Below are positions 6,127-63,937 of a stretch of DNA of 64,000 nt, one piece after another (the stretch's first letter is position 1; the number at the start of each line of letters is the position of its first letter). The notes beneath the pieces were generated by a model. It worked only from the letters and a program-made list of their open reading frames with translations. It had not been told where the DNA came from and did not search any database. Where the stretch lies: the IMG/VR virus record IMGVR_UViG_3300021431_000003, positions 32,001 through 96,000 of that record, one strand, 5' to 3'. Source of the stretch: a virus (taxonomy: Duplodnaviria > Caudoviricetes). The translations under genes were made by a program, and so were the position numbers.

Positions 6127-6140
6127 AACTATAAAGTAAT
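6127..6140 (+). promoter_or_regulatory. Late-type promoter AACT-N6-TAAT driving a non-coding RNA
   Basis: AACT-ATAAAG-TAAT; predicted +1 (6138) coincides with the first base of the first stem. Confidence 0.65.
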
Positions 6141-6372
6141 GCATTAATGATGTGTGCTGTCAGTATGTGATGGCTTTTTCCGTCGTTATGCATTTGCGCA
6201 AGAGCAGAAGCTGTATTTGCTTTATATTACAGCTGTGTGTGCTGACATAGGCGGATCTGAGCTTGACACTAGCGACTAGGTACCATCGCTGAATAAGTGT
6301 CTGTAAGACTCCCCCACTCCTAGCACTGCAAGCACAATTGTGTTAAGCCTATCATTGCAGCTTTCTGCTCTT
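6138..6372 (+). ncRNA. Unrecognised, highly structured non-coding RNA (transcript probably extends to the terminator at ~6460)
   Basis: GC-richer ORF-free island with stems 6138-6152/6181-6194 and 6200-6215/6356-6372, inner helices, a possible long pseudoknot, and its own promoter and terminator. Confidence 0.7.
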
Positions 6373-6432
6373 ATTATTTTTTAAAAGTTCCTATACTCAG
6401 GGTCATAAAATACTGTCCTTTCAAAAAGAATT

Positions 6433-6462
6433 TGAACCCTAGCACAAAGCTAGGGTTCATTT
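6433..6462 (+). terminator. Intrinsic terminator ending the ncRNA unit
   Basis: TGAACCCTAGC-ACAAA-GCTAGGGTTCA followed by TTT. Confidence 0.8.
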
Positions 6463-6473
6463 CTGCCGTTTTG

Positions 6474-6487
6474 AACAAATTAGTAAT
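6474..6487 (+). promoter_or_regulatory. Late-type promoter AACA-N6-TAAT
   Basis: AACA-AATTAG-TAAT, 26 nt upstream of the ATG at 6513. Confidence 0.7.
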
Positions 6488-6512
6488 ATATTCAATGAAA
6501 GGAGTATATCTC

Positions 6513-9500
6513 ATGGAAGAATATAGAAATATACTTGCTAACAAGTTTATGCGAGATACTAACTATATAATTATCAAAGATACTGATGACCTTGAAGAAC
6601 TAGAACGTCAATGGGAATTATTTCAATCTTCTCTTACTGTAAGACAACAGAGACTAAGCGATGATAGATCTCTTCAAATTTGGAATATGACTAATCAACA
6701 GCATTATGAAACTTTAAAAGCTGAATTGATGGGAGACTTACAGAATAAACTAGGTATAGAAGATGATGAACCTATATCTATTGAATATGAACCAGATGAT
6801 GATGAAAAGATAGATGATAGTGAAATTACAAACTTTGTTAATATGTCTTTTGATGATTTTGAGATTCCAGATGATGAGAACGAAATCTCTGAACCTATGA
6901 AAGAAGAATCTACTATACCAATTGATCCAAATCAAGCATATATAGATAATCATAGATGGAAGATTGGATATGATGGTATTGACAGAGAGAAAGATAAGAT
7001 TGCTGACCAATATGAGATTGATTCTAATATTAATATTATCGGTGGTGTATATGGTGAAACACCTAAAGAACTGTTAGACAATCTTGAAAAAGCATATCAA
7101 GCTTGGAACTCTCAAAATCAAGACCATAGAAAAAAGTCTGATGATAAGTGCAGAGAAATCTATGGTATGTCTAATATAGATAGATATAATAAGCTTAAAG
7201 GCATTTTTGTAAAGATGTCTGTTCCAAAGACAGATAAAGATGTATCTAAGAATATTAGTAATAATACTAATTCTTCTGAAGAAGCATTAAGCGAATTTAC
7301 TCTAGAAGTATATCGTAATATGCAAGTAGTTAATGAAGCAGAATCTAATAAAGCCAAACAACATAGAAGACTCAATGATACTCCATACTTTACTCCAAGT
7401 GAAATGATTGATATGGGAGTACATGGTAATCATAATTACTATTGTAAAGATGCAGATAATGATGGTCTTATTACAAGAGTAAGAATTCCAACTTGGTTTG
7501 ATTCTTATAAAGATATGTGTATGGACCATATCTTTGAAGACTATACTAGAGATTGGATTGATACATTAGACTATCTATACTCAGATTTTGAAGAGATTAA
7601 AGAGTCTGGTAATGAAGAAAAGATTCTTGCTCGCAAACAGTCTATTCTTGATTTGGGTTGGAATCCAGAGATTCCATTTACTAGACGTAATAGACAATTA
7701 GCATCCAAACGTGTATCTAAGCTATTAGATAAATCTAGTCCAATGAATCTCTTTATTAATCTTGATAAAGAAGTTCCAGATGAAGCTATAACAGATGAAC
7801 CTGTTACAGAAAATGCATCTAAAGATACGCATCAGCCTATCTATATGGTATTTGTACAAGGCAAAGCTCCTGTCGTATCAACTGCTATTAAGAAGGTTAC
7901 TAATTCACCATTCTCTCACATTGGTATCTCTTTTGATTCAAAATTAAATACTGTACACACATATAATATGGTACCAAAACCTGGCGTAGTAAAAGAAACT
8001 TTGTCTGGTTATAAAGATAATATCATTACAGTAATGGCATTCTTTGCTCCTACAGATATCTATAACACAATGAAAGACACCGTAATGGATTATTATATCA
8101 ATGCTAAGAAAACTGTATATGACTTTGGTATTATTTTTAATAAGCTAATCAATAAGAATGCTAGAGTAGTAAACGATAAGTACCATCAAGTATGCTCTAC
8201 ATTTGTTGATACTGTGCTTAAGTCTGGTAAAGTAACGTTAGATAAAGATGCTAATGTACCATCTCCAGCAGAATTATATAATGCTACTAAGTCTATGCCT
8301 AATAAGATTATTGAAGTATATTCTGGTCCAGCAGATAAATATGATAGTGTTAAAGTAGATAAGAAGATGAATAAACTCTTAGAAAAGGGCACTAAAGCTA
8401 TTGATGAAGCAACTGATATTGCTTCTCAAATTAAACTTGTACCAGCAACCCAATCTGATACTGAAAATATGTATAATTGGGAAATGGAGTCTATTGATAA
8501 ATCTCTTCAATCTGATAGTAAAGTTATATCTTGCATTAAACAAGATGTACAAGATTCTATCAAAGATACTAAGATGATTACTTATAATAACAAAACTATC
8601 GGTATGCTAACTTGCTGTTATATAGATAACGGTGAATGGTGGTATATTGGCGAGATTTATCTAATACCAGAATATCGTAATAAGGGTATTGGTACAAAGC
8701 TTATCAAAGAACAAATGCAATCTCGCGATAAAATCAAACTTCAAGTAGCATATAGTAATAAGGGTGCTATAAAGTTGTATAAATCTCTCGGATTCAAAAC
8801 CATAAATAAAAATGATAAAGGTAAGATGTATATAATGGCTTACGATAAATCTCAATCTTTAGAAGAAGCTGTAACTGATTTAAAATCATCAGAATCTAAT
8901 GATATATATCATAATATAGAGGATTGGGAGTCTGGTAAATCTAACTTATTATGGATTACTGGATTATCTGGTTCTGGTAAATCTACTATAGCTAAAGAGA
9001 TATCTGGAAATAACATAGAACATGTAGAACTGGATAATCTTCAAAGAGCTAAAATGGATAACTGGGACCACACTGGTTCTACACTTATGGATGATTATAT
9101 TAAATCTAAAGGTGGTCTTACTAATATCTTTTCTTATGTAAACGATTTAGATGAAGTTAGATGGAAAGACTTAGTGTCTAATGAAACTGAATGTCCTAAG
9201 CAATTCAATGATTTCTTTGAATATATAATTAAATATGCTAATACTCATAAAAATAAAAGATTCGTTGTAGAAGGCGTACAAATTGCAATGTGCTCCAAAA
9301 ATACTACTATAGCAAAGATATCTAAATACCCAGTTATTATAAAAATGAATGGTCCTCTCAAAACAGAATTTCGTAGAGAGAAACGTACCATACAAACAGG
9401 TATAGATAAAAATGATACCTTTATAAAAATATTAAAGACTGTTGCTAATAGACATAAAAACTGGTGGAAACAAAACTTTTATATGGATGATTGGAAAGAA

Positions 9501-9968
9501 ATCAATTACTTTAGAACTCATATAGGAGAATCAGCTTCTATACTTAATGAAGTAAAGCAATTCCCAGTAGAATTCGACAAAGATGGTAATCTCATTATCT
9601 ATAAGGTTCGTATAGGTTCTATCGCTTATGGTGATGAGATTGATGATTCTGTAAAGTTATTAGAGTCATATAGAAATACTAACAATATTGAAGGTATGAA
9701 ATATGAACTCGCTAAGCTTTGGTTCATTAACGATTCTATTGAAAAGAAGCTTAAAAAGAAACTTACTAATGACCAATATAAAGAACTTATTGACCATAGA
9801 GCTACTTGTTTGAATGTATTTAAGCTCAATCTAGAATATGTAATGAAAGCAGAGAAAGGATTTAACTTCTCAGACTATTATAACTCTACTCCATTCTCTG
9901 ATAATTCAATTAAGATTACTGCTAATACATTAAAATACTCTATGAAAGCTATTGCTAACATGATATAA
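6513..9968 (+). CDS. Multidomain probable virion/head polyprotein: N-terminal duplicated helical repeat, permuted NlpC/P60 (YiiX-like) peptidase, GNAT acetyltransferase, P-loop kinase-like domain
   Basis: Start moved to ATG 6513 (AAAGGAG RBS). SPFSHIGISFD...QVCSTFV (His before Cys), WYIGEIYLIPEYRNKGIG...AIKLYKSLGF, and WITGLSGSGKST. Confidence 0.78.
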   Translation: MEEYRNILANKFMRDTNYIIIKDTDDLEELERQWELFQSSLTVRQQRLSDDRSLQIWNMTNQQHYETLKAELMGDLQNKLGIEDDEPISIEYEPDDDEKIDDSEITNFVNMSFDDFEIPDDENEISEPMKEESTIPIDPNQAYIDNHRWKIGYDGIDREKDKIADQYEIDSNINIIGGVYGETPKELLDNLEKAYQAWNSQNQDHRKKSDDKCREIYGMSNIDRYNKLKGIFVKMSVPKTDKDVSKNISNNTNSSEEALSEFTLEVYRNMQVVNEAESNKAKQHRRLNDTPYFTPSEMIDMGVHGNHNYYCKDADNDGLITRVRIPTWFDSYKDMCMDHIFEDYTRDWIDTLDYLYSDFEEIKESGNEEKILARKQSILDLGWNPEIPFTRRNRQLASKRVSKLLDKSSPMNLFINLDKEVPDEAITDEPVTENASKDTHQPIYMVFVQGKAPVVSTAIKKVTNSPFSHIGISFDSKLNTVHTYNMVPKPGVVKETLSGYKDNIITVMAFFAPTDIYNTMKDTVMDYYINAKKTVYDFGIIFNKLINKNARVVNDKYHQVCSTFVDTVLKSGKVTLDKDANVPSPAELYNATKSMPNKIIEVYSGPADKYDSVKVDKKMNKLLEKGTKAIDEATDIASQIKLVPATQSDTENMYNWEMESIDKSLQSDSKVISCIKQDVQDSIKDTKMITYNNKTIGMLTCCYIDNGEWWYIGEIYLIPEYRNKGIGTKLIKEQMQSRDKIKLQVAYSNKGAIKLYKSLGFKTINKNDKGKMYIMAYDKSQSLEEAVTDLKSSESNDIYHNIEDWESGKSNLLWITGLSGSGKSTIAKEISGNNIEHVELDNLQRAKMDNWDHTGSTLMDDYIKSKGGLTNIFSYVNDLDEVRWKDLVSNETECPKQFNDFFEYIIKYANTHKNKRFVVEGVQIAMCSKNTTIAKISKYPVIIKMNGPLKTEFRREKRTIQTGIDKNDTFIKILKTVANRHKNWWKQNFYMDDWKEINYFRTHIGESASILNEVKQFPVEFDKDGNLIIYKVRIGSIAYGDEIDDSVKLLESYRNTNNIEGMKYELAKLWFINDSIEKKLKKKLTNDQYKELIDHRATCLNVFKLNLEYVMKAEKGFNFSDYYNSTPFSDNSIKITANTLKYSMKAIANMI

Positions 9969-23066: not shown

Positions 23067-24806
23067 TTATCTGCTAACCTTAGATAGTAGGTTAACCATC
23101 TTCTTATAACTGTTATCAGATGCCTCACGCTCTAAGCCAGAGAAAGGAATCATTTCATAAGTATCGTCTCCAGTATCATAGAGGAAAGATGCAACTTCAG
23201 TAGACTGATTAGCTACTACAAGACACATAAAATTATATGCATCCATAATCTTTCTAGCTCTAGATACATCAAGAATATCAATACTATGAACTTTCTTGAG
23301 ATATTCAGAATCATTTTCCGACATTACAAGAGTAGAGATGGCAGTAGCATCATTATACATCTTGAGAGAACGACGGAACTTAGACTTGGTAGAACGTCTT
23401 TCAAGAACCTTCCAAAGTTTATTAGAAGAAGCATTCTTACCATAAGACTTAGCATCAAACTTAGCCTGGTCAACAGCAAATAAGAAATCTCTAAAGAAAG
23501 CAATCTCATTTGTAGTTGCTCTTACAAAGTTAGTAAGAAAGCTCTTGTCTTGAAGCTTACCAGAGATACGATTAACAATATCAGCAGAAGTGATAGGATA
23601 GATTTTACATTTAATTCCAATAACAGCAGTATTAATACTACCCTCACCATCTTCAGACTTACGAATAAAATTAACTACCATCATAGTAGGCTGAAGTTCA
23701 TTTGCTTTCTTATATTCATTGTTAAGAACAATTGCATTATGAGCTTTAGTCATAGACTCCATATATTTTGCAAAATCTATAGAGTTCATATTTTTTGAAT
23801 CAAAAGAACCACTTTGTTTAATTTCTCGATTAATTCTTTCATTTTGCGTTTTTCTAGCTTTTTCGTATCTTTCTAACTGTTGTTTAGCAGCCTTATATTC
23901 TTTTTCTCTATCTTTATAACTTGGGTCACTAGGGTCTGGTTTACCAATATCATTTTCCCAATTAGAAACAAGACTAGAAAGTCTACTTTCTTCTGGGTCC
24001 ATTGTAGTATAGCTAGTATTCTTAATATTTTGAGTAAAATTACCAGAACCAGTTTGATAATTACTTTGTGGTCCATGCATAGTTGACCAGTTTTGAGTTA
24101 GTATATCAAATTCATCTTGAGTAATTGAACCAGCGTTCAGCGCCCCTTTAATATCAGCTAATGTTACTTTATCTGGTTCATTAGAAAAATTAGACATACT
24201 ATGTCTAGCACCTCTAATGTCTCCAGCTTTTGTATAATGATAATCTTCTTTAACAATCATATCATTATATCCAGTTCTATAACCAGGTACAATCTTATAA
24301 GATTCAAGACTAGATTCATTTACATTATCAGGTAATGTATAATTAGATTCTTTAAGCTCTTCAAGAACTGTATTAAGTACTTCATGGTCAATCTTAAGAG
24401 TAGCATCATAAGACTCACCAAATGTAGTAGCAAGCTTATCAAATGCATCAGCATAGCCATCTAATGTATTATTCATACTTCCTACATTTGCATGGAACTT
24501 ACGTACATAATCATATACATCCTCGTTACTACCTACACTAATAGCAGTAAAAAGAATATGAAGAAGAGAAGCCATCTTCTTTTCTTGTGCTTTAGCAATC
24601 ATAATTGCATTATCAGGGTCAATATCTGTACTAACCATTACAGGGAAAGTAAGAATTAAATCCTTTGTTGCAGAAGTAATAGACTTGAAGCTTCTTTTTG
24701 CATTAGCATTATTGATGAATTGAACTTCATCAAAGTCTTTCAGGTCTGTCAGAATATCTACGATATCTTTAACAACAGATTCGTGAAAATACTCTCTTCC
24801 GTTCAT
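23067..24806 (-). CDS. Probable virion structural (head) protein
   Basis: Late promoter at 24834-24846; FHES, FGES, LKES and VNES motifs; located in the head-protein block. Confidence 0.5.
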   Translation of the reverse strand: MNGREYFHESVVKDIVDILTDLKDFDEVQFINNANAKRSFKSITSATKDLILTFPVMVSTDIDPDNAIMIAKAQEKKMASLLHILFTAISVGSNEDVYDYVRKFHANVGSMNNTLDGYADAFDKLATTFGESYDATLKIDHEVLNTVLEELKESNYTLPDNVNESSLESYKIVPGYRTGYNDMIVKEDYHYTKAGDIRGARHSMSNFSNEPDKVTLADIKGALNAGSITQDEFDILTQNWSTMHGPQSNYQTGSGNFTQNIKNTSYTTMDPEESRLSSLVSNWENDIGKPDPSDPSYKDREKEYKAAKQQLERYEKARKTQNERINREIKQSGSFDSKNMNSIDFAKYMESMTKAHNAIVLNNEYKKANELQPTMMVVNFIRKSEDGEGSINTAVIGIKCKIYPITSADIVNRISGKLQDKSFLTNFVRATTNEIAFFRDFLFAVDQAKFDAKSYGKNASSNKLWKVLERRSTKSKFRRSLKMYNDATAISTLVMSENDSEYLKKVHSIDILDVSRARKIMDAYNFMCLVVANQSTEVASFLYDTGDDTYEMIPFSGLEREASDNSYKKMVNLLSKVSR

Positions 24807-31286: not shown

Positions 31287-32249
31287 ATGGATTATGAAGA
31301 GATTATGCTCATGAGAGAAAATAGAGTTAAGAAGGATTCTCAAGCTGCTATTCGTGAGCATGTTGAGAGACGTAATACAATTTCTGAAGAAACTGATAGA
31401 AATGCAATTTGGAATAAGATTGCTTCTCTTGGTTCTAAGGATTATGATTATATTGACTTTAAGAAGAAGGTTACAGATGCTTTCCTTGTAGAAGGTCTTA
31501 CTATTCTTGTAGATAACTGTGTAGACCCTATTCTTATTAAGGAAGAATATAATCAGAAGCTTGTTCGTCAGCTTGTATCTGCATTTGTAAACGAGAACGG
31601 TTCTACAAACCTTCTCAATAAGATGAAGAAGACATCTTATCTTATGTCAGAAATGGCATATATTACAGAGTGTACAATTCAGTCTGTTCTTGAGAAAGCT
31701 GATAAGAATAACACGGAGACATTTAAGATTGAGCAGAAAGATAAGGACGAATTTTATAAGAAGCTTAGTAAGGTTGACGTAGACGAATCTATTGATAAGA
31801 TTACTTCTAGAGTCAAGGGACAAGTGAATGAATTCGTTACTAATAACATGGAAGAAAAAGCTCAACTTGGTGAAGCACTTAAGAAGACTGAGAAGAAAGT
31901 TGCTGATACTAAGGAAAAGCTTAAAGAAAAATCTAATGATGAGAGGGCTAAAGACCAGGCTCAGAAGATTGAAGAGGGATACATTGAACTCGGTAAACGT
32001 AGAGCTGTAGATATTCGTGAGAATAGAACTAAGAATGTATTTGAGCATATGGTTTATAATCTTGCGAAGACAGCTATGCTTAATGAATCTGCTGGTCATG
32101 TATTTATTAAGGATTCTAGACTTGATATGGATAAGATTGTTGAGCATTGTGAAGTACTCTGTACTTTCATTACTACACTTGATAGTACAAAGCTTATTAA
32201 TCTTGACGAGTCTTATATTGACCAGATGCTTAGAGATATGAAAAACTAA
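31287..32249 (+). CDS. Helical late protein, probably head-associated
   Basis: Late promoter 31248-31261; MREN, IEEG, LNES and LDES motifs; coiled-coil centre. Confidence 0.5.
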   Translation: MDYEEIMLMRENRVKKDSQAAIREHVERRNTISEETDRNAIWNKIASLGSKDYDYIDFKKKVTDAFLVEGLTILVDNCVDPILIKEEYNQKLVRQLVSAFVNENGSTNLLNKMKKTSYLMSEMAYITECTIQSVLEKADKNNTETFKIEQKDKDEFYKKLSKVDVDESIDKITSRVKGQVNEFVTNNMEEKAQLGEALKKTEKKVADTKEKLKEKSNDERAKDQAQKIEEGYIELGKRRAVDIRENRTKNVFEHMVYNLAKTAMLNESAGHVFIKDSRLDMDKIVEHCEVLCTFITTLDSTKLINLDESYIDQMLRDMKN

Positions 32250-36337: not shown

Positions 36338-39300
36338 TTAGCTCTTAGCGATTTGATAAATTGCATTTATAATGTCTTCTCCAGAGTTGTTATTATTTAG
36401 TGCAGTTCTTAATGCAGACAAACCATTCTTAGAGCCATTTGGAATTTTCTTATTATTACTATTATCTATCGCGGTGGTAGTATTTTCTGTATTGACAGCA
36501 ATCGTAGCTAATACAGCAAGAATATCATCTATCTTATTACTGTTGTCAGCAATAATAGCAGCGAGTCTTATTATATTAGCAAGATTATCTCCGCCATACT
36601 GAGTATAAGTATTGTTGTCTGCACCCATTATAGAACCTTTACCTGTATGTGGAGATACTATTGTATTATTATGAGCGTTAGTATTATTAGAAGAGCGTAC
36701 TACTCTACTGCTTCTAATATCATCCAGAGATTTTAATGGTCCAGTTCCTCTACCGTAACCAGTACGATAAGCTCCAGTAATTAAATCTCTGTTTACATCT
36801 CTTGTTACAATATTAGGAATTGTATTAGAGTCTGTAATTTTTCTCTTAGAAATTGGAATTCTGTTTAATTTAGCCAAATCAGTTTTACCATTTCTAGCAG
36901 AACCACGACCAAATCTACCATTACCAGAACCTTTATATCTAAGAACAAGTTTACATTCATTATCTTGAATAGTCCACGCACCAGGTTCTCCACGATTACC
37001 ATGACAAGAATCTGGGTTTGGAAGTTGATTATTGTTATCAAGATAGTACTTTGCTAGGCAATAAGAGTTGTACATACCATTACCGATAGAACCACCTGCG
37101 TCACCAGAACCAGCATTGAAACCGAATCTAGTTCCTTTAGAATTTGTAAATACATACATATCTGTATGTCCATGACCACTATGGAATCTAATGTCACCAG
37201 GTTGTACGTCATTAGGGTCAAACTTTAGAACTTCCCAATCAGATGATAAATTTCCGTCCTTATCATATATACATGTATTACTTGAAGCATTATTCCAGTT
37301 TTGAGTTCCAAAACCTTCGCCATGATAAGTATCACTATAATTCTTTTCAGCATTCCATCTAGATGTATAATAACCCATATAATGTATAACAGCAGACATC
37401 ATACCAGAGCAGTCAGGTCTTTCGTGTTCAAGTACAGTACCGTCTCTACATACAAGGTCATTATATTTAACACAATTACAGTCATAAGTTAGATCTGGGT
37501 CTGCATTATATAGAGCTTCAAATACCATAGCTGCAGCATATATAATATCATTACCATTATAAGCTGCTGTAGTATCAGAAGGTGTTGTATTATTATTAGT
37601 TTCAGTACCATAAAGTGCATCATAGAAATTACCAAATATATCTTTAGTTGCTCTTCTAGTATATTCACCTAAAAGTCCAATCAATCCAGTAGCTACACCC
37701 TTATTATTATCTGTAGAAGTAGAAGTAGTACTGTCAGTCGCTGTAGTATCTTCTTTCGTTGTTTCAGATATTGATTTTAATTTATCAATACTGATAAATT
37801 TATTTGAATCAATTATTTTATCATTTGTATTAGTGTTCTGTGTAGTATTATCAACAGGAACACCAGCGGTCCAAAGATTATCTTGACCTATCTCAGCAAG
37901 TTTTTCTTGTCTTTCAATTTCACCAGAGTTAGCAAAATTAATTGGGTCTTTTGCTCTACCAGTTATAGATAATTTATCTTCATTTACACCTCTACCAGAA
38001 CCACTAGAAGATTGTCCAGTAACAAGACCATATACTGCCAACGCAAATAAACGTCTCTTGAAACAATATAGGTGCTTATACTTGATATTTTTATATGCTT
38101 CAGATGCTGCTACAGAACCCCAGAAATCTGCAGAACCTTCAAGACCACGCTCAAAGTTAACAGCTGCTTCATCTGGTTTAGTAAGCTTCTTATATTCATC
38201 TACAGTATTTGCTACATTAAAGCCCATACTTCTGATTTGAGAAGCTGCTTTTTTAATTCTATTCTTACTCCAGTTAGAACCATCAGTAAGTTCTTCTTTA
38301 ACGTGTGCTAATTGTCCAGTCCATTCCCAATCAGAGAATCCATGAGCTCTAGCCCATGCAGGATGGTCATTCCAAGGTAGAGTCCATTGCATTAGTCCTC
38401 CACCCTCAGCAATATATCCTTTAAGTGCAACTGGCTTGATATTTTCAATTGTTCCACCGCCGCACTCTTGAACCCAGTTACCTATAGCACCACAAGCTGC
38501 AGCAGTACTACATCCACATTCATTAACTAAGAATGAATAGATTTCTGCACCGCCTTCGTCCATTGTAAGTGTAACAGACTCACCTTCGAGAGTAGCAGTA
38601 TAACTCTTTCCTATAGCAGCCTTTGCATCTCCTCTAACATTTACTCCTGTACTATCATTATTATTAGTAGTATTATTAGACGATGAACTGAAATTAACAC
38701 CTAAAGATTTAGCTGCATTATATATCATACTAGAAATGGTAGAATTTGTAACAGCTGATACACTAGAAATATATTTGTTAGCGAGAGATTCATTATTCTT
38801 GCCTCTACCTGTAGTAATTCTTACAGTAGAATTCTGTAGAGTATCAGCAAGGCTATAACGTGTACTGCCACGCCTATCTTCAGAATCTTCTACTATTACA
38901 TTACCATTCTTATCGAGCCCTCTAGCTACTACATAGTGAGAATACTTAGAACCATATGGTGTTCTACCACTATTCTGACTATCTCTACCCATTAAGATAA
39001 CAGGTTTACCCTGAGCGAGACTGTTTATTACATCAGCATTATTAGCATTAGAATTGGTTTTAATACCATTCTTATTGAGATAAGAATTAAAGTATTCAGG
39101 ATAAGTACCACCATTAACTTCTTTGTACTTATTATTAAGTGCATAGTTAACAGCATTACGCATATCACCATTCTTACCGTACATTCTAAGTACAGATGCA
39201 GCTGATGCAGGACCGCAACCAGAATCTGCGATAGTTTGGCTTTCAGAATCTCCTGCAGTTCTATAAGAACCAGAATAAGCTCTCTGATAGATATGATATG

Positions 39301-42300
39301 GGTCAGAACCATAACCAGAATCATTAGAATTATCCTTATCTCTACCGAGTCCAAAGAATCCTTTAACACCGCTCATTATTTTGGATGCAGTATTTTTAAT
39401 TCCTTGCCATAATCCACTTAATACACCACCATTAGATGCGGTAGCATTATTTGTTCCACTAGAAGAAAATGTAGTAGTACCATTACTAGAAGAACCAGTA
39501 TTATTTATCATAGTTGCAGTACTACTAGTATTACTTTTCGATTGAACTGCATTCATACCTGCAGCAAGAGATGCTGTAGCTAAAGAGAATGGTGCTTTAA
39601 CAACTCTGTTCATAGATTCTACAAAGTTGAATAGTCCACTCATAAATGGATTCTTCTTATCAAGTTCAATCTTCCAATAATTTTTACTTGTAGGCAAAAT
39701 AGACAGCTCATCAATTCCTCTATTGATAGAAGAGTTTTTGCTAGCTAAGCTCTTAAAGAATTCTTCAATCCCTTCAAACCCACCAGTTAGACTCTTGATA
39801 GAGTTATTGATTAGATTACCGAAATAAATACCTACTCTTTCTAATGGATTAGTATTCTTTAACCATCCAAAACCTCTCTCCAGACCCTTCATGAGAGGAT
39901 CTAGACTTCCAGTTAATGGACTAAGTTTATCGTTAGCATTTGCATTTGTAGCTACTCCATATTTGTCAATACCATCATATGATGTAGCAGCATCAAGAAC
40001 AGATTTTTCATCATACTTAGACATATCTACAGAATACTTAGAAGTATCAACACCTTCTATTTGTATTTTAGACATTTCATTTGTAGTGAAATATGCTGGC
40101 ATCATTGCGTCAAGAACAGCTTTAGTAATTTCAGCTTTCTTTCCACAGGGTTCAAATATTTCATTGATAATAGCACAAACACCAGCCATTGCTCTGATAA
40201 GTTTCCAATCAGAATGTTCTTCGTCTACATCAAATTGACTATTTGGGTCATCTTTACCAGAATTATATACGTCTTTAAGATGATGACTAGCATCCCATGG
40301 ACCAGTAAAGTTAGTAACATTGCTTGCTACTTCCTTTATTACGGATTCATCTTCAGCTACAAGAATAGCATTAAGATTAGAAATTACTTGAGTGCCTACT
40401 TCATTAAACTTGAATTTATTGGCATTAAGTTTTTCTTTACCCTTTAACTCATTACCATCTTCATCATATTGGTCAGAATAGTTGAAATCCTTTTCTCCAA
40501 AATACTGCCAAATAGATGAGAATATAGTAGAGAGCTTTTTGCGTACTTTATCACTCTTGCCTTTAGATTCAAGATTTGCTGTTTTTTCTAAGATTACACT
40601 CTTAGATGCTGAATCATAACCAAACATAGCTGACCATACATCTTTAGCACCATCACCAATCTTAGTAGTAATTGTCTTATTACCTATAAGATTATTATAG
40701 TCTTCGATACTAAGATTTGTATTATTCTTAGTATTATATGCTTCTACAGCAGCTTTAGCTTGAGCTCTTTCTTCTTTAATCTTAGACATGTCAATTCCAG
40801 GAATTAAGTCTAAAACATTAATAATCATTCCAACTAATGCATCTCTGATAGAATCAATAGAAATAATTAAAGTTGCAATAATACTAAGAGCTGCTAAAAC
40901 AGCACCTACGGCTGCAGCACCGCCGAATGATGCACCAGTTACAGCTTCAGCTAGTGTCATAATAACATCAGGAATTATATTAATAATACCACCAGTAAGT
41001 CTTTCTACAAAAGATGGTTTAGGTGTAACTATACCGAGTAGGTTTCTGCAATTATCTACACCAAGTAAGAAGTCTGCAACCATCATTACAATAGAAAGTA
41101 CGCTAGCAGCACCTTTAGCTGCAGCTGTAGAACCTTGTTTAGCGATATCATCAACACTATCGCCAATTACATCGCCAGTACCCTTAGCAACTTTTTCGGC
41201 TATTTCATCAGCATTTTCGTTTATACCTTTACCAAAAAGCTTAGCAATTTTTTCGTTCTTAAGAACCTTTGCTATCTTTTCTTTCATTTTACCTACAGAT
41301 TTTTTGATAAAATCAATAGCCTTTTCAAAGAAGTTTGCGTCTCCAGAGGCAATCTTTTCAGCAAGTTTATCAGCTTTCCACGCTTTCTTTGCAGCAGCCT
41401 TAGCAGCATCAGCTTCAGCTTTAGCTGCTTTTAATGCATTCTTTTCAGCAATCTTAGCAGCTGCAGCAGTCTCTCTATCAATCAATACCTGACCAATTTT
41501 AGAGAAAGCTCCATTTGTAATTTTATCTCCAACTTTACCAACGGCATTCATAGCAACACCGTGTATAGCAGCAATAGGTTTAGTTGCTTTTTCTGCAATA
41601 TTAGTAACACCTTCACCTAATCTACCGACTATCTTTGTTGGAGTAAATGGAATTTTCTTTAACGCTTTGAATGGAAGACCAAGAATCTTAGTTGCACCAG
41701 TCATGGCTTTAATACCCTTAGCTCCATTAAGAACTCCCATATTGCCTGCTCTTGCAGCAAGTCTTCCAACTAATCCAGCCATTTTACTTTCAGATGAACG
41801 TCCTACATAATCTGCATCTAATGCATTTGCATTTTCTAATGCCACTTGTTGTTGATAAGCAGCGTTTTCAGAAAGCGATTCATCTGCTAATTCATTATAT
41901 TCACTTAATGGAATATAACCACCATTACTATCAAGAGTATATGCCTTATTAGTTTTAGAATCTTTGAATATTTGTTGACCAGAAGCATTTGTTCCTATAT
42001 AATAATAATCTCCAGATATTTTAGAAGTTACTTGTTTACCAGTAGATTCATTAGTATATGTGCTAGTACCATCTTCATTCTTATTACCAGATATTTTATT
42101 ACCATTCTTACTAATAGCTTCACTTGGGAAGTTTATATTAGCAGAATATCCAGGAGATGTAAGTTGTACATTACCACCAACAGTGTTAGGTACGTCTATT
42201 GATGTTGCTTGTACATTTACTTGTTCTCCAGGAGATGTATCAGGAATTTGTATTTCTAATGCACCTTGTCTACCTTTAAATACATCCTTAGCATAATCTA

Positions 42301-45300
42301 CTAAACCTTGACCGACATTCTTAACAACTGTCCATACCATAGGAATAAGATTCTTACCTATACCATAAAGAACCTTTGGCACAAAGTCACCATATACAGT
42401 AACGAAACCAGTCTTCCAAAGTTCTACAATATGAGCTCCAACCTTAGCAAGGCTATTCCAGAATCCGCTAAGACCTCTATCTGGTGCAGCATATTCTCCT
42501 TCATTATGAATCCAATTATGAACCTTCTCAAATTTAGATTTAAAGAATTTTCTAATAGGATTAACGATACCAGAGATTATACCACCCTCATATTCACCAG
42601 TAGTTTTATTCTTGACACCAAAGATTTTATCTTTAGCTTTAGCAAGCCATGGCTTAACTTTTTCACGAATCGCAGGTAATATATCTTCTTTAATGAATCC
42701 TACTATTAATGGAACGAATACACCGCCAACAAATAGCCACTTGATAATCTTACCAATCTTAGAATCCTTCTTACCTTCAAAATTCTCTTTATCTTTTCTT
42801 AATTGTCTAGCATCCATTCTGTCGAAGAATCTACCGATAAAAGTATCCTGTTCTTGGTTCTTTTCTTTCCACGCTCTTACAGCATCAAGCTTACCTGCAA
42901 CAGCATTTCTAATACCAGATTTAAGAGTACCAGTAACAGATTTATATCTATCAGAACCTACTACTTTTTTAATAGCACCTCTCATAAATGTCTCTGTTAA
43001 AGAAGCTTTACCATAACCGTATCTAGCATAGAATCTACCATTAACTTTATTTTGTTCTTTAGCATCTAGTTCGTTGTATTTCTTACCATACAATTCAAGT
43101 GATAATTCATCAAGTCTTTCATCTTTATTCTTGATAGCAAGAGATATAACTTTATCTCTTTTAGCATCAGATGCCTTCTTTTTAATTTTTTCTTTAGTAT
43201 CATTAGCCCAGTCACTTACCTTAGCTGCAGCGGTTCTAATACCATTATTTATTTTATCTCTTACACCTTGAAGCTTAGATTGAACTCCATTTCTGATATT
43301 ATCAGAAATGCTATTCATAAGTTTCTGATATCTACCATCAATGAATCTTTCAACAAATACTGCATGAATTGCTTCTTGTTCTTTTTCAGTTAAGTCTTTC
43401 CAAAGAACATTATTTTCATGACCATTCTTACCAGCATATAGTTCTTTTACTAATTTCTGCAGTTCTGGACCTGCTTCTGGTTTAGCATCTTTATTATTAG
43501 AGTCAATTATAAATAACCTAGACCAAGCATATTCAGCTTTTCTCTTTAGATTCTCTCTGACTTTCTTCATTCTTTCTTCTTTAGTACCTTCAGCATTATC
43601 ATTAAATAAGATATTACCAGTACCTTTAATAAGTTTGATGGTTTGTCCTAGTTTACTTCTAACAAGACGTTTACCGATTTGCTTGATACCACCAATTATT
43701 CCACGACCGAATACTTGGTTTTCTTTCTTAGCTTGGATGTACATATTAACAAATTCATCATGAACTTGTTTTTGTTCATCCTTAGTACAAGCACTAAATC
43801 TACTTACACCAAGATTACATCTTTTTGTAATAGCATCAAGGAATTCAAACTTATCAGCTAATTCTTCTTTAAGCTTATTTTGAACCTCTTCGCTAGCTGT
43901 ATTAGCACTTCTTAGTGCTTCTAATGCAGATTGGTAAGAAGCTACTTCCTTATTCCATTCTTTTTCAGCTTCTTGTTGATATTGATAATTATTAAGTCGC
44001 TGAATCAAGGAATTATCATCAATCTTATGGTCACTTAAAGCAAGACCTACATTAAATCCTATCTTCTTTACACCTTTAATAGCACCACTGATAATAGACT
44101 TACCATGGGTTCTAATAGCATCCTTTACAAATAGAGAATGGATACCTGTAAATTTTGGTAAATCTGGCATAACAATAGGATTCATATATACACCAAGCTT
44201 AAGAGACTTAGCTATCATATCACCGAAAGACATGTAACTATCTTCTATAGTCTTTGGTCTATGGTCAGCAAGATAATCCTCTATGAATTGACGTTTAGCT
44301 GCATCATAAGATACAGGTTGACCTTTTCCAGGAATAACATTATAGCCGTCTACTTTATAATACATTTCAAAATTATAAGGAGTTTCTCCACGATAGATAA
44401 GAATCTTACGTTTCATTACCTTAATCTTCTTGACAGCTTCTTCTTCACTGCATTTTTCTTTATTCATTATCTTCTGCTTATATGTCTGAATATCATCTCT
44501 AATTCTTTCAGGAACACAGAGTTCTTTCAATGCGAGACCATCAAACATTTGACAAGCAGTATCAATTAATTCATTTATTTCATTATTAAGTACATTAGCC
44601 ATTCTAGTATCAGGAGCTAAATAACCCTTTAAGTCACCAGTAAGCATTGGAATATAATCATTCCAAAGGTCATTAGAAATAAAGTCACCCGCCTTAATAG
44701 AGTCTTTATTAATAGAACCTATCTTATCATTCTTACCAATAACATAACCACCATTAGCAGCATTTTCTTTAATAGCTTTTTGTGATCTAGAATCCTTTAC
44801 AGATTTAATATAAGCTTCTTTAGAACCATACTTAGCTTGTTCTTCTTTGGATAACTTGTCATATCCATTACCAATTGTTAAATCATAGTGGATGTTTTCA
44901 AGTATTTCTTCCATCCTTTTAGCTGCAGTATTTACAGTTTCAAGAGGAGAATCTTTACCCTTCCAGAAAGCTTTTTCTGCCTCAAAAGCAACTTCTTCAT
45001 CTGTAAGGCCTACACCTTTATGAGCTAATTCACGATTAGCCATAAGTTTAAGATTTCTAACAGCCTTCTTATCTCTAAGGTCTACATTAATACCCTTAGA
45101 TAATAAGTATTGCTGTACAGTCATCTTACTTCTCTCAATATCTTTATAATCTTTAGATGCTTTATTCATTTTATCTCTATGAAGTCTTAATTCCTTCATA
45201 ACAGATTTCTTAGTAGCATTATCGATGTTTCTAGTATTCAAGAATCTTTCAACATCTTTGTCTCTACCTTCTTTAAGCATCTTAATGATTCTTTTAGCAT

Positions 45301-48300
45301 CTTTACGGTCTAAATTATTTCTAAGCTCTTGACCTAATACATCATAAGAAGAGTTTACAAAATTATCAATCTCACCACTATTTTCGTCATAAGAAAGAAT
45401 ATTTAACAGAGATTCTATATCACCGCTAGTATAATCAGCAAGCTTTTCATCTATAGCAGACCATTGATCTGTTTTAGCCATTTTTAACTTACCTCTAGCA
45501 GCTAATCTCTGTCTTGCGGTCATATCATCTGCACGACCTCTTCTAATACGATTAGCCTTTAATCTACCACCAATACCTTCATCTCCAAGAAGTCTGAAAG
45601 GTTTAGTAGCTACACGACCAAGTCTACCAGCAATACCAATAGCACCGCTACCGATTTTACCAGCTTTTTCAAAGACGCCTCCAAGAAAATTATTTCCAGC
45701 TGCATTAGCTCTAATCTTCTTGAATATATCTAATGTGAAATCCTTGATATCAACAATTGTATTTGTTAATTCTTTAAAGATAGATTGAGCACCAGAAGTC
45801 ATAGGAGTTATTATATTATCACGAATAGCTCCGAATAATCCTCCTTCTCTCTTGGCATCTTCTCCATCACCATTCTTTTTACCAAAGATTTCATCCATTG
45901 TCTTATCTATAATTGTTTGTCCGAAACCCTTTAAAGGTTTAACAATATTATCATTTAATGCTCCTCTTACACCACCTCTACGTTTACCATTCTCACCTTC
46001 TTCACCAAGTAAGAAGTCTTTGAATTTATCAGTAGAAGTGACATATCCTGCAGTAGCACCAATAAGTGCACTACCAACAAGACCAAAAGGACCAGGGAGG
46101 AATAATGCTGCTGTAGCTGCACCAATTCCCATATTTTTAGCACCCTTCTTGAGTTTGTCTACATTCTTATCAGAGAATATACCACCCTCACCAAAGAGTG
46201 ACCCTTGGAAGATTTCAGAATTCTTTGCGAATCCTAAGCCTGTACCGATTAATAAACCACCTAATGGACCAAGAGGAGTTAATAAGCCAGCTGCCATACC
46301 AGCCATACCACCCTTAGCCATATCAGGAGCAGCTTTTTGAAGTTCTTTAGAGATTAAACCAGTATCTTTTCTCTTAGGATTACCATTAGAATCGACAATG
46401 ATTTCACCAGTTTTCTTATCCTTTTCTACATCACCAAATAAGAAGCTAGCAAAAGAACCAGTAGATTTGGTTAAAGTAGAAGCAGCACCTACTGCTGCAC
46501 CAAGTAATGGACCGCCAACTAATAAGCCAGCTACACCGCCTAATACACCTCTAGATGCCATATTACCTAAGAAAGCAGCTCTCTGTTTATCATCTTCAAG
46601 AGTTGTCCAATCAGTAAGTTTATTAATGTCAACCTGCTGAATTCTTTCTTTAGCCTCAGCATCTAACTGTTGATGCTGAGCTAATTCTTCTGCTGTTAAA
46701 CCATCATTAGCTTCAGCATTATATCTAAGACCTCTAATGAAGTTCTTTTCATTACGAGATTGAAGATTTCTTACAGATGTAGGAGCTGGGTTATAAACTA
46801 CACCACCCTTAGGAATAGTATAGATACCAGTCTGACCAATCTTAGAACCGTTAAGATATTCACCTGCAGAAAGTACAGACTGGAATGGACGACCAGTTCT
46901 ATTTACACCACCTGCAGCCATACCTCTTACATTTATTGTAGAGGCTTTAATACTAGCTAATTTCCTTTCAGCTTTTTCAAGTTTAGTTCTTAAATCATTT
47001 TCTAATCCAGGATTGCTAGCAAATAAAGGAGCTTGACCAGCTAATTGATTTCTTAATCTAATGACTTCAGCTTCAGCTTTAATTATAGCAGCTTGTTTTC
47101 TTACATTTGCTTCTTCAGAAGTTCTTACACTTATATTTTGACCTTCGTTAGAATGAGTCCTAATATAATTCAATCTGTCCATTGCATTTGCAGAAATATG
47201 CTGATTATAATCATATACGTCAGTACTTGCTTTAGATGCTATTTCAGCTCTTCTTAAAGCTCTTTTTTGTGCAGATGTTAACGATGGTGTTGGTGAAGGA
47301 GAAGGATTGCTACTAGAAGATTCTGGATTAGTTATTTTACCAGCTAATCTCTTAGCCTCATCAATTTCCTTTTTCCACATAGCATGTACATCATCTGCAT
47401 TCTTTGCCATACCTTTACGGAATCCAGCTGTAAAATGAGAGAGTAAACCTTCTTCTAAGATATTACCTTCAGAGTCCACATCACCAAAGATTTTATTTTT
47501 GATTTTGTCTACATGAGGCTTTATTTTTTCATTATAATAGTCCTTAACTGGACTCAAAAGTTCTCCAATTTGTTCTTGAACCTTTTTGAAGAATTTTTGA
47601 GTGTGTTCTTTCATTAATTGCCAGAGAGACTTTTTCTGGTCATCAGCTTTCAAATCTTCACCATAAATAAGATTACGTAACCAAGCATCTGTCTTTACAA
47701 TAGTACCAGTTACTTTATCCATAACAGCAAAGTTAGTCTTCTGAGTAAACCATTTAGCTGCAATAGCAAGTTTCTCTGTAGTACCAGTAGCTTTAGATAA
47801 GTTCTCCATTAAGCCCTTATCTTTATCATATTTATCAGTGGCTCTCTTAAGCTTATCAGTATTTTCTTTACCAATAAGCTCTTCCATTTTCTTCCACTTT
47901 TCTTTTTCTTTCTTAGCATCCTCTCTCTGCTGATTCAGTTTGAACTCAGATTCATACTGTGCACCTTCACCATAGTAATCTGATACAAGACGAGATATAC
48001 CAATCTGGTCACCTTCAGATTGATAATTATAAGAGTCAGTAATAAAGCTAACAGACTTGCCCTTTCTACGTGCCTGCTCCTCCACTCTCTTTATATTAGA
48101 TTCAAAGCTTTCTTTAGCTTTTTCTTTAGCTTTTCTTTCAAGCTGTTCATAATATCTAGATGTATACTTTTCATCAGTAGTGCCATTATATTTTACTATA
48201 GCACCATTTTCATATAGTATATCATTGAAATTAATTGGACTTGGTGGGTTTGGTCCACTATTGTTTACATTAAAAATAGAAAGATTTCTAAGATAAGAAG

Positions 48301-61909: not shown

Positions 61910-63937
61910 TTAGATAGCGTCAATATCGAAATCATTCTTACCGATGCTGCGTACACCATCACCACGACCAGTCGGGTCATTGTTGAAGCTGTAGTCAGTA
62001 CCATAGTTGCGGAGACCAGTAGGATTCAGGATGCGGATACGTCCCTGAACTGGCTGATATTCCTTAGCAATCCAACGCTCAAACGCATGTACTGCAGGAA
62101 GAGCAGGGTTGGTAATATTTCTGATTTCGTTAGAGAGATACATCTGATAATCATAGATTCTGTAGATGAAACGCTCAGAGTTTCTTGGGCAGAGGATAAT
62201 CATCAGGTTGTTGCTATCACGAAGCTTATCAGAACTAATGAACTGATACGTTCTCTTATCAGAAGTAACAACAGTCTTTACAAAGTCAAGCTCAACAGGA
62301 CCGATGCTAGAAGGAGACTGATAAGTATAATCGGTAGGAGTAATCTTACGGATAAGATCATCACGACCAATGATGTTGAACGTAACGTTCGGATCATTTA
62401 GAACATGGAGAAGCTGAGTAGCATGAGTATCAAGACTATCCATGAAGGTCTTGTATCTCCACTCGATTGGGTCGAGTGCATAGTTCTGAGATGGAGCGAA
62501 GTCAAACTGACGTGCAATCTTAGAATCTGCAGGCATATTGAGGAAGGACTCATCGAGGAATCTACGAATGAGGTCATCCTTATAGTTAGCCAGAGAAATC
62601 TTCATCAGAGACATAACCTTAGTAAGCTGGTTAATCTGATAGAGTGCAGCGATGTCCTTAACTTCCTCAGGAGAGATAGTTACATTAATCGGGATACGGT
62701 TAGGAATCTCGATAATGTCAGTACGAACGCTCCAAGAAACGCTAGGAGTCTTGAGCATTGCAGAAGAAGTATCAAGACGAGAAGTAAGCAGAACACCAAG
62801 AACGTTCTGGTTAGAAGTGGTGATACCGAATCTGTTATCCTTAGAGAAACCAGATACGAAACCAACAGTTCTGTATTGACCAGGAATTGCATTCTCAGAA
62901 GTAGTATTGTCAATAACTACAGTAGAACCATCTGCTAAAGTAACAGTAAGTGCCCAAGTATCTGCAAGAGTACCAGCAGCAACAGAAGTTACCATAGGAA
63001 GTGCAAACTGCTCACAAATCTGACGGTCATAAGTACCGTATGCAGGAACGAAATTACCCTTCCAATCAAATACAGCACCGATAACAGTCTGAGTTACAGT
63101 AGCATCAACAGTAGGAAGCTGAGCTGCAAGGTCAGAAGGAGTCTGAGTAGGAAGAACGTATGCAGTCGTAGTAGTATTAGTATACTTTACAGTAACATAC
63201 GTAACAGTTGCAGGAGTAGTAGCTGCATCGGACTGCTCAACAACGATGTTAACAGTCTGACCAGGATATACAACTCGATTGCCTACGAGACCAGAGATAT
63301 AGGACTCGATAGAAAGATTGGTGTTGTGGTCGGCAGGAACACCAAACAGAGTCTCGATAATATTAGTGTTCTCAGCTTCAGGAAGTGGGAGATAAAGAGA
63401 CTTAAGTGGTGCAGCCTTCTCGATTGCATCAGTCATCTTATATTGCTCTCTCCACATATCAATCTTCTCACCAGTCTCAGGATCAATGAGCCAACGAGTC
63501 TCCATAGATACAGTGAACTTAGGAGAAGTAGCTACGAGCTTAGGAATAGCACCCTTATCAAAGATATTGTTAAGCATGATATTCTTATGGATTGGGAAAG
63601 TCATACCGATAACAGGGTTAAACTGACCCATACCAGAATGCTCAAGAACAGCTTCCTTATCATTCTCATAAAGCTGCTCCATCATAAGGATGTGATCTTC
63701 ATACTCCTCTGCAGTCATACCCTTAGGATCTGCAGAATTTTCGATGAAGAAATTCTTCATTGCGGAATCAGTAATATCTCTTCTAAAAACCTTAGAAGGT
63801 TCAGTATAAATGTCAAGTCTACCCTCTTCCAAAATAGAATTGGAGAGGTTCAGGAACTCTTTCGCCATACCAGCCATAGGGTCATGTGCATAACCGTTAG
63901 AGCCAGGCTTGCGAATAGCTTCACCAACTACTGGCAT
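61910..63937 (-). CDS. Probable major capsid protein
   Basis: 675 aa with among the most strongly biased codon usage in the window; N-terminal propeptide with ILEE/IEN/VLEH sites; own terminator 61849-61876; size and layout like phiKZ/AR9-type capsid proteins. Confidence 0.7.
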   Translation of the reverse strand: MPVVGEAIRKPGSNGYAHDPMAGMAKEFLNLSNSILEEGRLDIYTEPSKVFRRDITDSAMKNFFIENSADPKGMTAEEYEDHILMMEQLYENDKEAVLEHSGMGQFNPVIGMTFPIHKNIMLNNIFDKGAIPKLVATSPKFTVSMETRWLIDPETGEKIDMWREQYKMTDAIEKAAPLKSLYLPLPEAENTNIIETLFGVPADHNTNLSIESYISGLVGNRVVYPGQTVNIVVEQSDAATTPATVTYVTVKYTNTTTTAYVLPTQTPSDLAAQLPTVDATVTQTVIGAVFDWKGNFVPAYGTYDRQICEQFALPMVTSVAAGTLADTWALTVTLADGSTVVIDNTTSENAIPGQYRTVGFVSGFSKDNRFGITTSNQNVLGVLLTSRLDTSSAMLKTPSVSWSVRTDIIEIPNRIPINVTISPEEVKDIAALYQINQLTKVMSLMKISLANYKDDLIRRFLDESFLNMPADSKIARQFDFAPSQNYALDPIEWRYKTFMDSLDTHATQLLHVLNDPNVTFNIIGRDDLIRKITPTDYTYQSPSSIGPVELDFVKTVVTSDKRTYQFISSDKLRDSNNLMIILCPRNSERFIYRIYDYQMYLSNEIRNITNPALPAVHAFERWIAKEYQPVQGRIRILNPTGLRNYGTDYSFNNDPTGRGDGVRSIGKNDFDIDAI

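Follow-up and report, generated by a model that had tools for sequence, protein, structure and literature searches.

The gene at positions 6513–9968 of a 64,000-nucleotide stretch of phage DNA (hereafter the window, which corresponds to bases 32001–96000 of IMG/VR virus record IMGVR_UViG_3300021431_000003, 223,528 bp long with direct terminal repeats) encodes a 1151-residue modular protein in which enzyme domains follow one another in a chain, each ending in a hydrophobic-x-Glu sequence, and in which whole domains are exchanged between related phages at these Glu residues. The same uncultured phage genome carries split multisubunit RNA polymerase genes, many virion genes and the gene for a head protease of the T4 gp21 type (family S77). 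With belief and doubt evenly balanced, we favour the reading that the protein is a precursor packaged in the head, from which the S77 protease would release the individual enzymes, and that it has a swappable cargo slot; packaging, cleavage, delivery and the targets of the enzymes are what we infer from the sequence.

The open reading frame (ORF) is real: its ATG at 6513 sits 8 nt past an AAAGGAG sequence (6498–6504), and the same methionine begins the homologs. A first-pass annotation, made from the letters of the window, had proposed three unrelated enzyme domains in tandem, and these are borne out at the positions it gave, the GNAT acetyltransferase by a Pfam match, the permuted NlpC/P60 domain by fold and the P-loop domain by its Walker A motif (Table 1). 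All of the junctions that it quoted are likewise present, namely VNE275/A, VTE433/N, IDE632/A, LEE785/A, IGE1006/S and LNE1013/V (the slash marks the candidate point of cleavage). The constant part of the protein begins with two helical units, A1 and A2, which are repeats of each other because the hidden Markov model (HMM) of A1 also matches residues 166–240. The N terminus is nearly invariant, and the first conserved site, L-E-E29, falls inside a predicted helix. Further conserved sites lie between the folded units of this part, at E127 and E131 (site conservation 0.88 for I-S-E127 and 0.97 for M-K-E131), at E261 and E275 (the latter a hydrophobic-x-E in 97% of homologs) and at E433. In the full-length AlphaFold model, with a mean predicted local distance difference test score (pLDDT) of 69.9, the low-confidence segments comprise residues 81–149, 238–264, 277–285, 429–436, 627–634, 782–784 and 1007–1035. 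The Glu sites between units coincide with these segments (pLDDT < 50), and the domain borders of the model coincide with the Glu sites, as the first-pass annotation would have it. Cleavage at the conserved sites would give A1, A2 and B pieces with predicted isoelectric points of 4.1–5.0, and P60, GNAT, P-loop and C pieces with values of 7.9–9.2. This split into an acidic N-terminal part and basic enzymes is compatible with carrier parts and DNA-associated cargo, for which it is weak evidence.

Table 1. Positions of the features in the window, with the residues (aa) of the 1151-residue protein
Feature	Position	Strand	Basis
AACAAATTAGTA, AAC[AT]-N6-TA promoter-like motif of the AR9 non-virion RNA polymerase type	6474..6485	+	28 nt 5' of ATG
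Coding sequence, 1151-aa modular protein	6513..9968 (stop 9966-9968 included)	+	ORF and homologs
Helical unit A1, aa 1-80, nearly invariant, conserved L-E-E29	6513..6752	+	Four helices, pLDDT 74-91
Acidic disordered linker, aa 81-149, conserved I-S-E127 and M-K-E131	6753..6959	+	pLDDT ~31
Helical unit A2, aa 150-237, repeat of A1	6960..7223	+	AlphaFold model, HMM
Linker, aa 238-285, conserved L-S-E261 and V-N-E275/A	7224..7367	+	Low pLDDT at 238-264, 277-285
Helical domain B, aa 286-428, plus linker to invariant V-T-E433/N	7368..7811	+	Model and alignment
Permuted NlpC/P60 domain (YiiX/YaeF, C92-like), aa 434-632, ends A-I-D-E632/A; His469, Cys561	7812..8408	+	Fold match
Cassette G, GNAT acetyltransferase, aa 633-785, ends S-L-E-E785/A	8409..8867	+	PF00583
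Cassette K, P-loop kinase-like, aa 786-1006, Walker A aa 817-825, ends H-I-G-E1006/S	8868..9530	+	Walker A
Heptapeptide S-A-S-I-L-N-E1013 between twin sites	9531..9551	+	E1013 invariant
C block, aa 1014-1151, VKQFPVEFD hairpin, then three-helix bundle	9552..9965	+	In all family members
Major capsid protein, candidate maturation site A-V-L-E99/H (codon 63641-63643)	61910..63937	-	phrog_20655
Virion structural protein, sites F-H-E/S, F-G-E/S, L-K-E/S, V-N-E/S and [IV]-x-E in first 190 aa	23067..24806	-	phrog_23804

The domain at residues 434–632 is, from its modelled fold and the order of His before Cys, a permuted NlpC/P60 domain of the YiiX/YaeF type (MEROPS C92). Fold comparison with the AlphaFold model of P0058, a natural homolog consisting of the N and C blocks only, gives YiiX (2if6; VIA Z 13.6, root-mean-square deviation 2.5, 140 residues aligned), a Bacillus cereus cysteine peptidase (3kw0; Z 13.5, Foldseek probability 1.0) and the type VI secretion system effector TseH (6v98; Z 11.0). 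His469 precedes Cys561, the order found in all three of these structures, and both residues are invariant in 76 homologs. TseH is, in addition, an enzyme delivered into another cell. The resemblance in sequence amounts to only 10–20% identity, and the domain is here embedded in a polyprotein; PF05708 is absent from the Pfam matches at E values up to 1, and the sole sequence match is to phrog_1128 (9e-8). The GNAT domain scores 53.4 bits against PF00583 over residues 685–761 (gathering cut-off 20.7), with Naa50, NatC and SpeG as its nearest folds (probability 1.0). Against the RimI equivalog TIGR01575 it reaches 41 bits, under the cut-off of 86.4, and its sequence is RimI-like in a broad sense only. 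The P-loop domain carries the Walker A sequence GLSGSGKST at residue 817; its Pfam and NCBIfam scores (AAA_18, AAA_33, APS kinase) are all below cut-off, with the matches confined to the P-loop. Domain B matched no known family. For the C block no family match was obtained and the ESM Atlas search gave nothing usable; a wide VIA search with a 787-residue model returned only generic three-helix-bundle matches for this block and barely covered domains A and B.

We note that the sole cultured-phage relatives of the papain-like domain are stand-alone 290-residue 'cysteine peptidases' of the Fusobacterium phages JD-Fnp1/4/6/7 (175–180 kb). In JD-Fnp4 (L021; ON464764.1, 18848–19720), the ORF next to the peptidase gene is annotated as DNA gyrase subunit A and has no match to the other domains of the family.

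The middle of the protein behaves as a slot. A homolog search of 5.8 billion proteins gave 338 matches, the best 120 of which were decomposed by BLAST. An N block (residues 1–632) and a C block (residues 1007–1151) are constant in these 120 homologs, and the stretch between them holds from none to about six cassettes, of ~20 types by iterative clustering, in more than 50 architectures. In P0058 the N block is joined straight to the C block; other middles are G-K (as in the window), K-G, K alone, G alone, K-K, or consist of other cassettes. Among the additional cassettes, a second GNAT, a second P-loop type and a C4 zinc finger can be annotated, and the commonest (X14, ~197 residues) and most others have no Pfam match. 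The swapping that the first-pass annotation had supposed is thus found in the orthologs, in which cassettes are gained, lost, duplicated and reordered exactly at the Glu sites. N blocks that are 99.5–99.7% identical are followed by different sets of whole cassettes, e.g., N-K-G-C versus N-K-G-X14-C and N-X2-G-C versus N-X9-X14-X3-X2-G-C. Judged from these alignments, cassette turnover is very fast. The alternative cassettes are not encoded elsewhere in the genome from which the window comes.

Two observations on individual homologs may be added here. X14, represented by residues 633–829 of P0025 and absent from the window, has a consensus that includes FYHISFD, PRVCLSNSIEG and EMWILEP. An ESM Atlas search offered only a weak lead to the Arr-type rifampin ADP-ribosyltransferases (score 0.93), which Pfam and PDB sequence searches did not support; profile searches of X14 and of the N-C frame against PDB sequences gave only P-loop noise. 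The IMG/VR phages L006 and L015 (~230 kb) have identical C blocks and near-identical ends of their N blocks, with X3-X2-GNAT-P-loop between them in the one and only X14 in the other; cargo has therefore been replaced on a near-identical frame in a distant branch too.

Homology breaks at the Glu residues. BLAST places the breakpoints at query positions 633, 781–790 and 1004–1008, that is, at E632 (AIDE/A), E785 (LEE/A) and E1006 (IGE/S); the protein has 22 [ILVM]xE sites in all, and the chance of such a coincidence is ~0.005 by a rough estimate. A hydrophobic-x-Glu sequence occurs in 222 of 230 distinct junction segments versus 521 of 1461 (36%) interior segments of 18 residues; these counts are phylogenetically non-independent, and the conservative one is that per module type, in which ~20 of 21 unrelated left-hand modules end in hydrophobic-x-Glu. 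In every homolog the N block ends in such a sequence and the C block is preceded by one. The residues around the junction Glu (P1) are also preferred ones, with Ile (0.31), Leu (0.14), Val (0.10) and Phe (0.07) at P3 and Ser (0.24), Ala (0.13), Glu (0.12) and Gly (0.06) at P1', in a logo built from every Glu of the junction segments without requiring a hydrophobic residue; the logo of interior Glu residues is flat, with no preference. Twin sites 5–7 residues apart, of the form hydrophobic-x-E/x-x-S-[IV]-[LF]-N-E/, are common at the junctions. A junction word or repeat acting at the level of DNA was considered and rejected for this gene: the joints have no direct repeats and the synonymous positions of the junction codons vary freely among ten relatives, so that the constraint is on the protein rather than on the DNA.

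The family is broad. A profile search of 1.84 billion cluster representatives recovered 499 clusters at E values up to 1e-30, and all 65 family-bearing viral contigs long enough to judge are jumbo phages of ~160–290 kb. The majority of distant members have 650–850 residues and the order A-A-B-P60-(6 to 70 residues)-C; the large cassette slots are therefore an elaboration within a widespread jumbo-phage gene. Conservation of the Glu sites, on which the first-pass annotation depended, extends to these relatives: the junction rule holds at 41–44% identity, and ~95% of ~130 distinct representatives retain the Glu directly ahead of the C-block motif [AVT]-K-x-F-P-[VI]-[QE]-F. The window protein itself gave no match by tblastn against 50,697 phage records, and two distant members matched only the Fusobacterium-phage cysteine peptidases in the same records.

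A protease suited to these sites is encoded by the phage. The S77 gene (G000:C1:5877-6737, minus strand; 286 residues) scores 29.7 bits against PF03420 (cut-off 27) and matches phrog_207 at 3.6e-19, and its tail carries AVLE/S and ALNE/G, with a density of the strict motif [ILVMF]-x-E-[SAG] that is the second highest in the genome. S77 genes are present in nine of ten distant family-bearing genomes and in all seven of those that are at least 90% complete. Processing by the head protease would require this co-occurrence, which nevertheless does not tell the readings apart, since the carriers all come from a single group of jumbo phages. T4 gp21 cuts after L/I-X-E (PMC9026906), the SPN3US protease prefers A-X-E (PMC10052503) and the phiKZ protease S-X-E (PMC5694885). 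Of the two proteases to which the first-pass annotation had likened the present one, the T4 enzyme is therefore apt, both in the type of protease encoded and in the L/I-X-E match, and the comparison with phiKZ gp175 is loose, because proteases of the phiKZ/SPN3US type favour a small P3 residue.

The same motif is found in the head proteins. The candidate maturation site of the major capsid protein, A-[VI]-[LN]-E99, stands directly ahead of the highly conserved mature part in six phages, and five or six of the sites in the first 190 residues of the virion structural protein at 23067–24806 are kept in an alignment of six orthologs. The earlier statement that the motif is dense in the propeptides of capsid and head proteins has less rigorous support than the junction pattern, from these sites and from a post hoc count (11 strict sites in the first 170 residues of five head proteins, against 0.37 per 100 residues genome-wide). 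Because the S77 protease is encoded and the motif recurs at the capsid propeptide border and at the head-protein sites, cleavage in the prohead is the best reading of the junctions.

Among the head and other ORFs we also observed the following. The virion structural protein at 23067–24806 is conserved in residues 1–189 and from about residue 340 onward; between these parts, six phages have from ~0 to ~150 residues of unrelated low-complexity sequence, and this hypervariable stretch starts directly past a conserved [IV]-x-E at about residue 189. The highest strict-motif density in the genome (6 sites, 1.88 per 100 residues) belongs to a 320-residue ORF at 31287–32249 (plus strand), which directly follows the gene for a 1474-residue protein (phrog_18960).

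In the mechanism that we propose, the precursor would be built into the prohead, where the S77 serine protease would cut after Glu at [I/L/V/F]-x-E in every inter-domain linker. The acidic A1, A2 and B pieces may be carrier or targeting parts, like the T4 propeptides or core proteins. The basic proteins set free, i.e., the permuted NlpC/P60 hydrolase, the GNAT, the P-loop kinase-like enzyme and the helical end-piece, would remain with the DNA as this passes into the host. The cargo slot would be what lies between the two constant blocks, N and C: each cassette brings its own C-terminal hydrophobic-x-E, and therefore any order or number of them would leave the chain fully cleavable. The long constant blocks could act as homology arms for exchange between co-infecting relatives. 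The more general proposition, which we consider possible rather than probable, is that a large uncultured jumbo-phage clade (at least 499 clusters at 50% identity) has a gene dedicated to cargo loading, with a constant carrier frame and a plug-in slot, such that any in-frame domain ending in hydrophobic-x-Glu would be freed by the head protease and injected.

Several points weigh against a packaged and processed precursor, beside the non-independence of the junction counts. The neighbours of the gene are thyX, dCTP deaminase and ABC-ATPase-like genes, not head genes, and replication genes have the same promoter type. A T4-like N-terminal targeting peptide was not recognised in the 1151-residue protein, and the HMMs of A1, A2, B, P60 and C, run against the proteome of the phage itself, found no shared targeting domain. 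The Glu that invariably precedes the C block might serve some functional motif instead of marking a point of cleavage. With the exception of protease self-cleavage, all prohead cleavages identified in SPN3US yield N-terminal propeptides (PMC10052503), so that freeing several enzymes from inside a chain would exceed what is established. Finally, cultured phages with a known virion proteome gave no homolog.

If the protein were never cleaved, it would be a single multi-domain 'polyvalent' enzyme, packaged or cytoplasmic, with joints that represent an inherited linker convention or a docking motif. Many polyvalent proteins are thought to act or to be packaged whole, e.g., N4 vRNAP (PMC5512222), and the metabolic neighbourhood of the gene would suit such an enzyme; in addition, the strict motif is not unusually dense overall (7 sites in 1157 residues, against the genome mean of 0.37 per 100 residues). 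We nevertheless judge an uncleaved enzyme unlikely, for ~20 unrelated cassette types end in a Glu with hydrophobic P3 and small P1', the profile of gp21-type sites that interior Glu residues do not have, the twin sites 5–7 residues apart have no obvious structural role, and the capsid propeptide border bears the same motif. Less likely again is a role mainly as a prohead core or scaffold protein, cut into pieces that are expelled or kept as small internal peptides (cf. T4 gp22, gp67 and gp68), the enzymes being passengers of little consequence or acting inside the capsid. It is true that the constant parts are acidic and helical, that their long linkers are acidic and disordered, that many of their sites are conserved, that the gene is widespread, in a single copy, among jumbo phages of 160–290 kb, and that T4 core proteins undergo cleavage at many L/I-X-E sites (PMC5694885, PMC9026906). 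A mere scaffold, however, would not explain why the papain-like catalytic residues are invariant and the GNAT and P-loop motifs intact, why cassette turnover at the strain level resembles that of an arms-race locus, or why the enzyme parts are basic, like DNA-associated internal proteins.

The least likely of the alternatives, in our estimation, is a polyprotein that processes itself, the permuted papain-like (C92) domain cutting the joints in the cytoplasm or in the capsid. Papain-like proteases cut the polyproteins of RNA viruses, and no family member lacks the domain, whose His/Cys pair is invariant and whose closest solved relative (3kw0) is annotated as a cysteine peptidase. For some polyvalent proteins, e.g., P1 DdrB, it has been proposed that they cut themselves before they are packaged (PMC5512222). 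However, we know of no YiiX/YaeF-type enzyme that acts as an endopeptidase, and TseH, the nearest characterised relative, is a cell-wall effector. Against self-processing it also counts that Glu at P1 combined with a hydrophobic residue at P3 is the rule of gp21, obeyed also in capsid and head proteins that have no papain-like domain, that the papain-like domain is itself flanked by sites as any cassette is, and that the family co-occurs with S77 proteases.

Set against published systems, the protein is a variant of the T4 internal proteins and Alt and of the polyvalent proteins (PMC5512222). With T4 IPI–III and Alt and their protease gp21 (PMC9026906, PMC5694885), it shares the Pfam family S77 of the protease and the hydrophobic-x-Glu rule, and probably also the logic by which the head takes up enzymes or inhibitors that cleavage then frees for injection, with cargo that varies between related phages. 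In T4, each cargo has its own gene and a 10-residue N-terminal targeting peptide, and the cuts are N-terminal only, whereas the present gene chains several enzymes together between N and C blocks that stay constant, and each joint carries a site. Polyvalent proteins (Iyer et al. 2017, PMC5512222) likewise combine several unrelated conflict-type domains in one polypeptide, RimI-like GNATs, peptidases and kinases among them, are likewise predicted to be delivered with the DNA, and have highly variable architectures. Unlike the present protein, they are not defined by prohead-protease sites at the joints and have no fixed N/C frame with a cassette slot; their signature domains were not detected here, the BFVD matches to 'large polyvalent protein-associated' domains being non-significant (probability 0.04–0.08). 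The phages phiKZ, 201phi2-1 and SPN3US (gp175/gp245 proteases; PMC10052503, PMC5694885) are also jumbo phages with split RNA polymerases; in them a gp21-related protease cleaves many of the head proteins after Glu as well as its own C terminus, and propeptides have multiple sites. In phiKZ and SPN3US, P3 is small and, self-cleavage apart, the products are N-terminal propeptides; the sites of the window protein have a hydrophobic P3, like those of T4, and lie between whole enzyme domains. The window protein shows no sequence homology to the processed proteins of phiKZ, 201phi2-1 or SPN3US.

Should the precursor be packaged and processed as proposed, the cargo of one carrier gene would be re-dealt between near-identical strains, with the head protease as the decoder and no need for many separately targeted genes. 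Injected effectors would then turn over combinatorially at the strain level, in a cassette system that operates on protein and is read by a protease, and the role of gp21-type proteases would widen from trimming propeptides to freeing whole enzymes from a polyprotein. The ~20 uncharacterised cassette families would be candidate host-takeover or anti-defence effectors, and the junction would suggest a rule, taken from nature, by which foreign proteins might be loaded into phage heads.

The promoter-like sequence upstream of the gene conforms to the consensus of the AR9 non-virion RNA polymerase, AAC[AT]-N6-TA (PMC5449584). All nine relatives examined have it; its position relative to the start codon is −37 to −42 in eight of them and −22 in L009, whose start codon may be mis-called. 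In the genome as a whole, 58 of the 194 ORFs have the motif 20–60 nt upstream, in most cases at −34 to −44, against ~6% of ORFs expected from base composition by our estimate. The ORFs behind it comprise both virion and replication genes, including those for DNA polymerase and dCTP deaminase. The motif is thus a mark of non-early transcription and says nothing about a role in the virion. The first-pass annotation's description of the protein as late-made is accordingly weak: the upstream motif is conserved, but it also precedes the DNA polymerase and dCTP deaminase genes, and a 'late promoter' was for this reason rejected as evidence of a virion role.

A hairpin (AACCCTAGC...GCTAGGGTT) followed by a T-run at 6443–6465 closes the upstream non-coding stretch (6138–6460) directly before the promoter-like motif, and this layout of hairpin and then motif upstream of the gene is common to all relatives. 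Elsewhere in the window, AACA-N6-TA also lies upstream of a single ORF of 4626 residues at 36338–50218 (minus strand).

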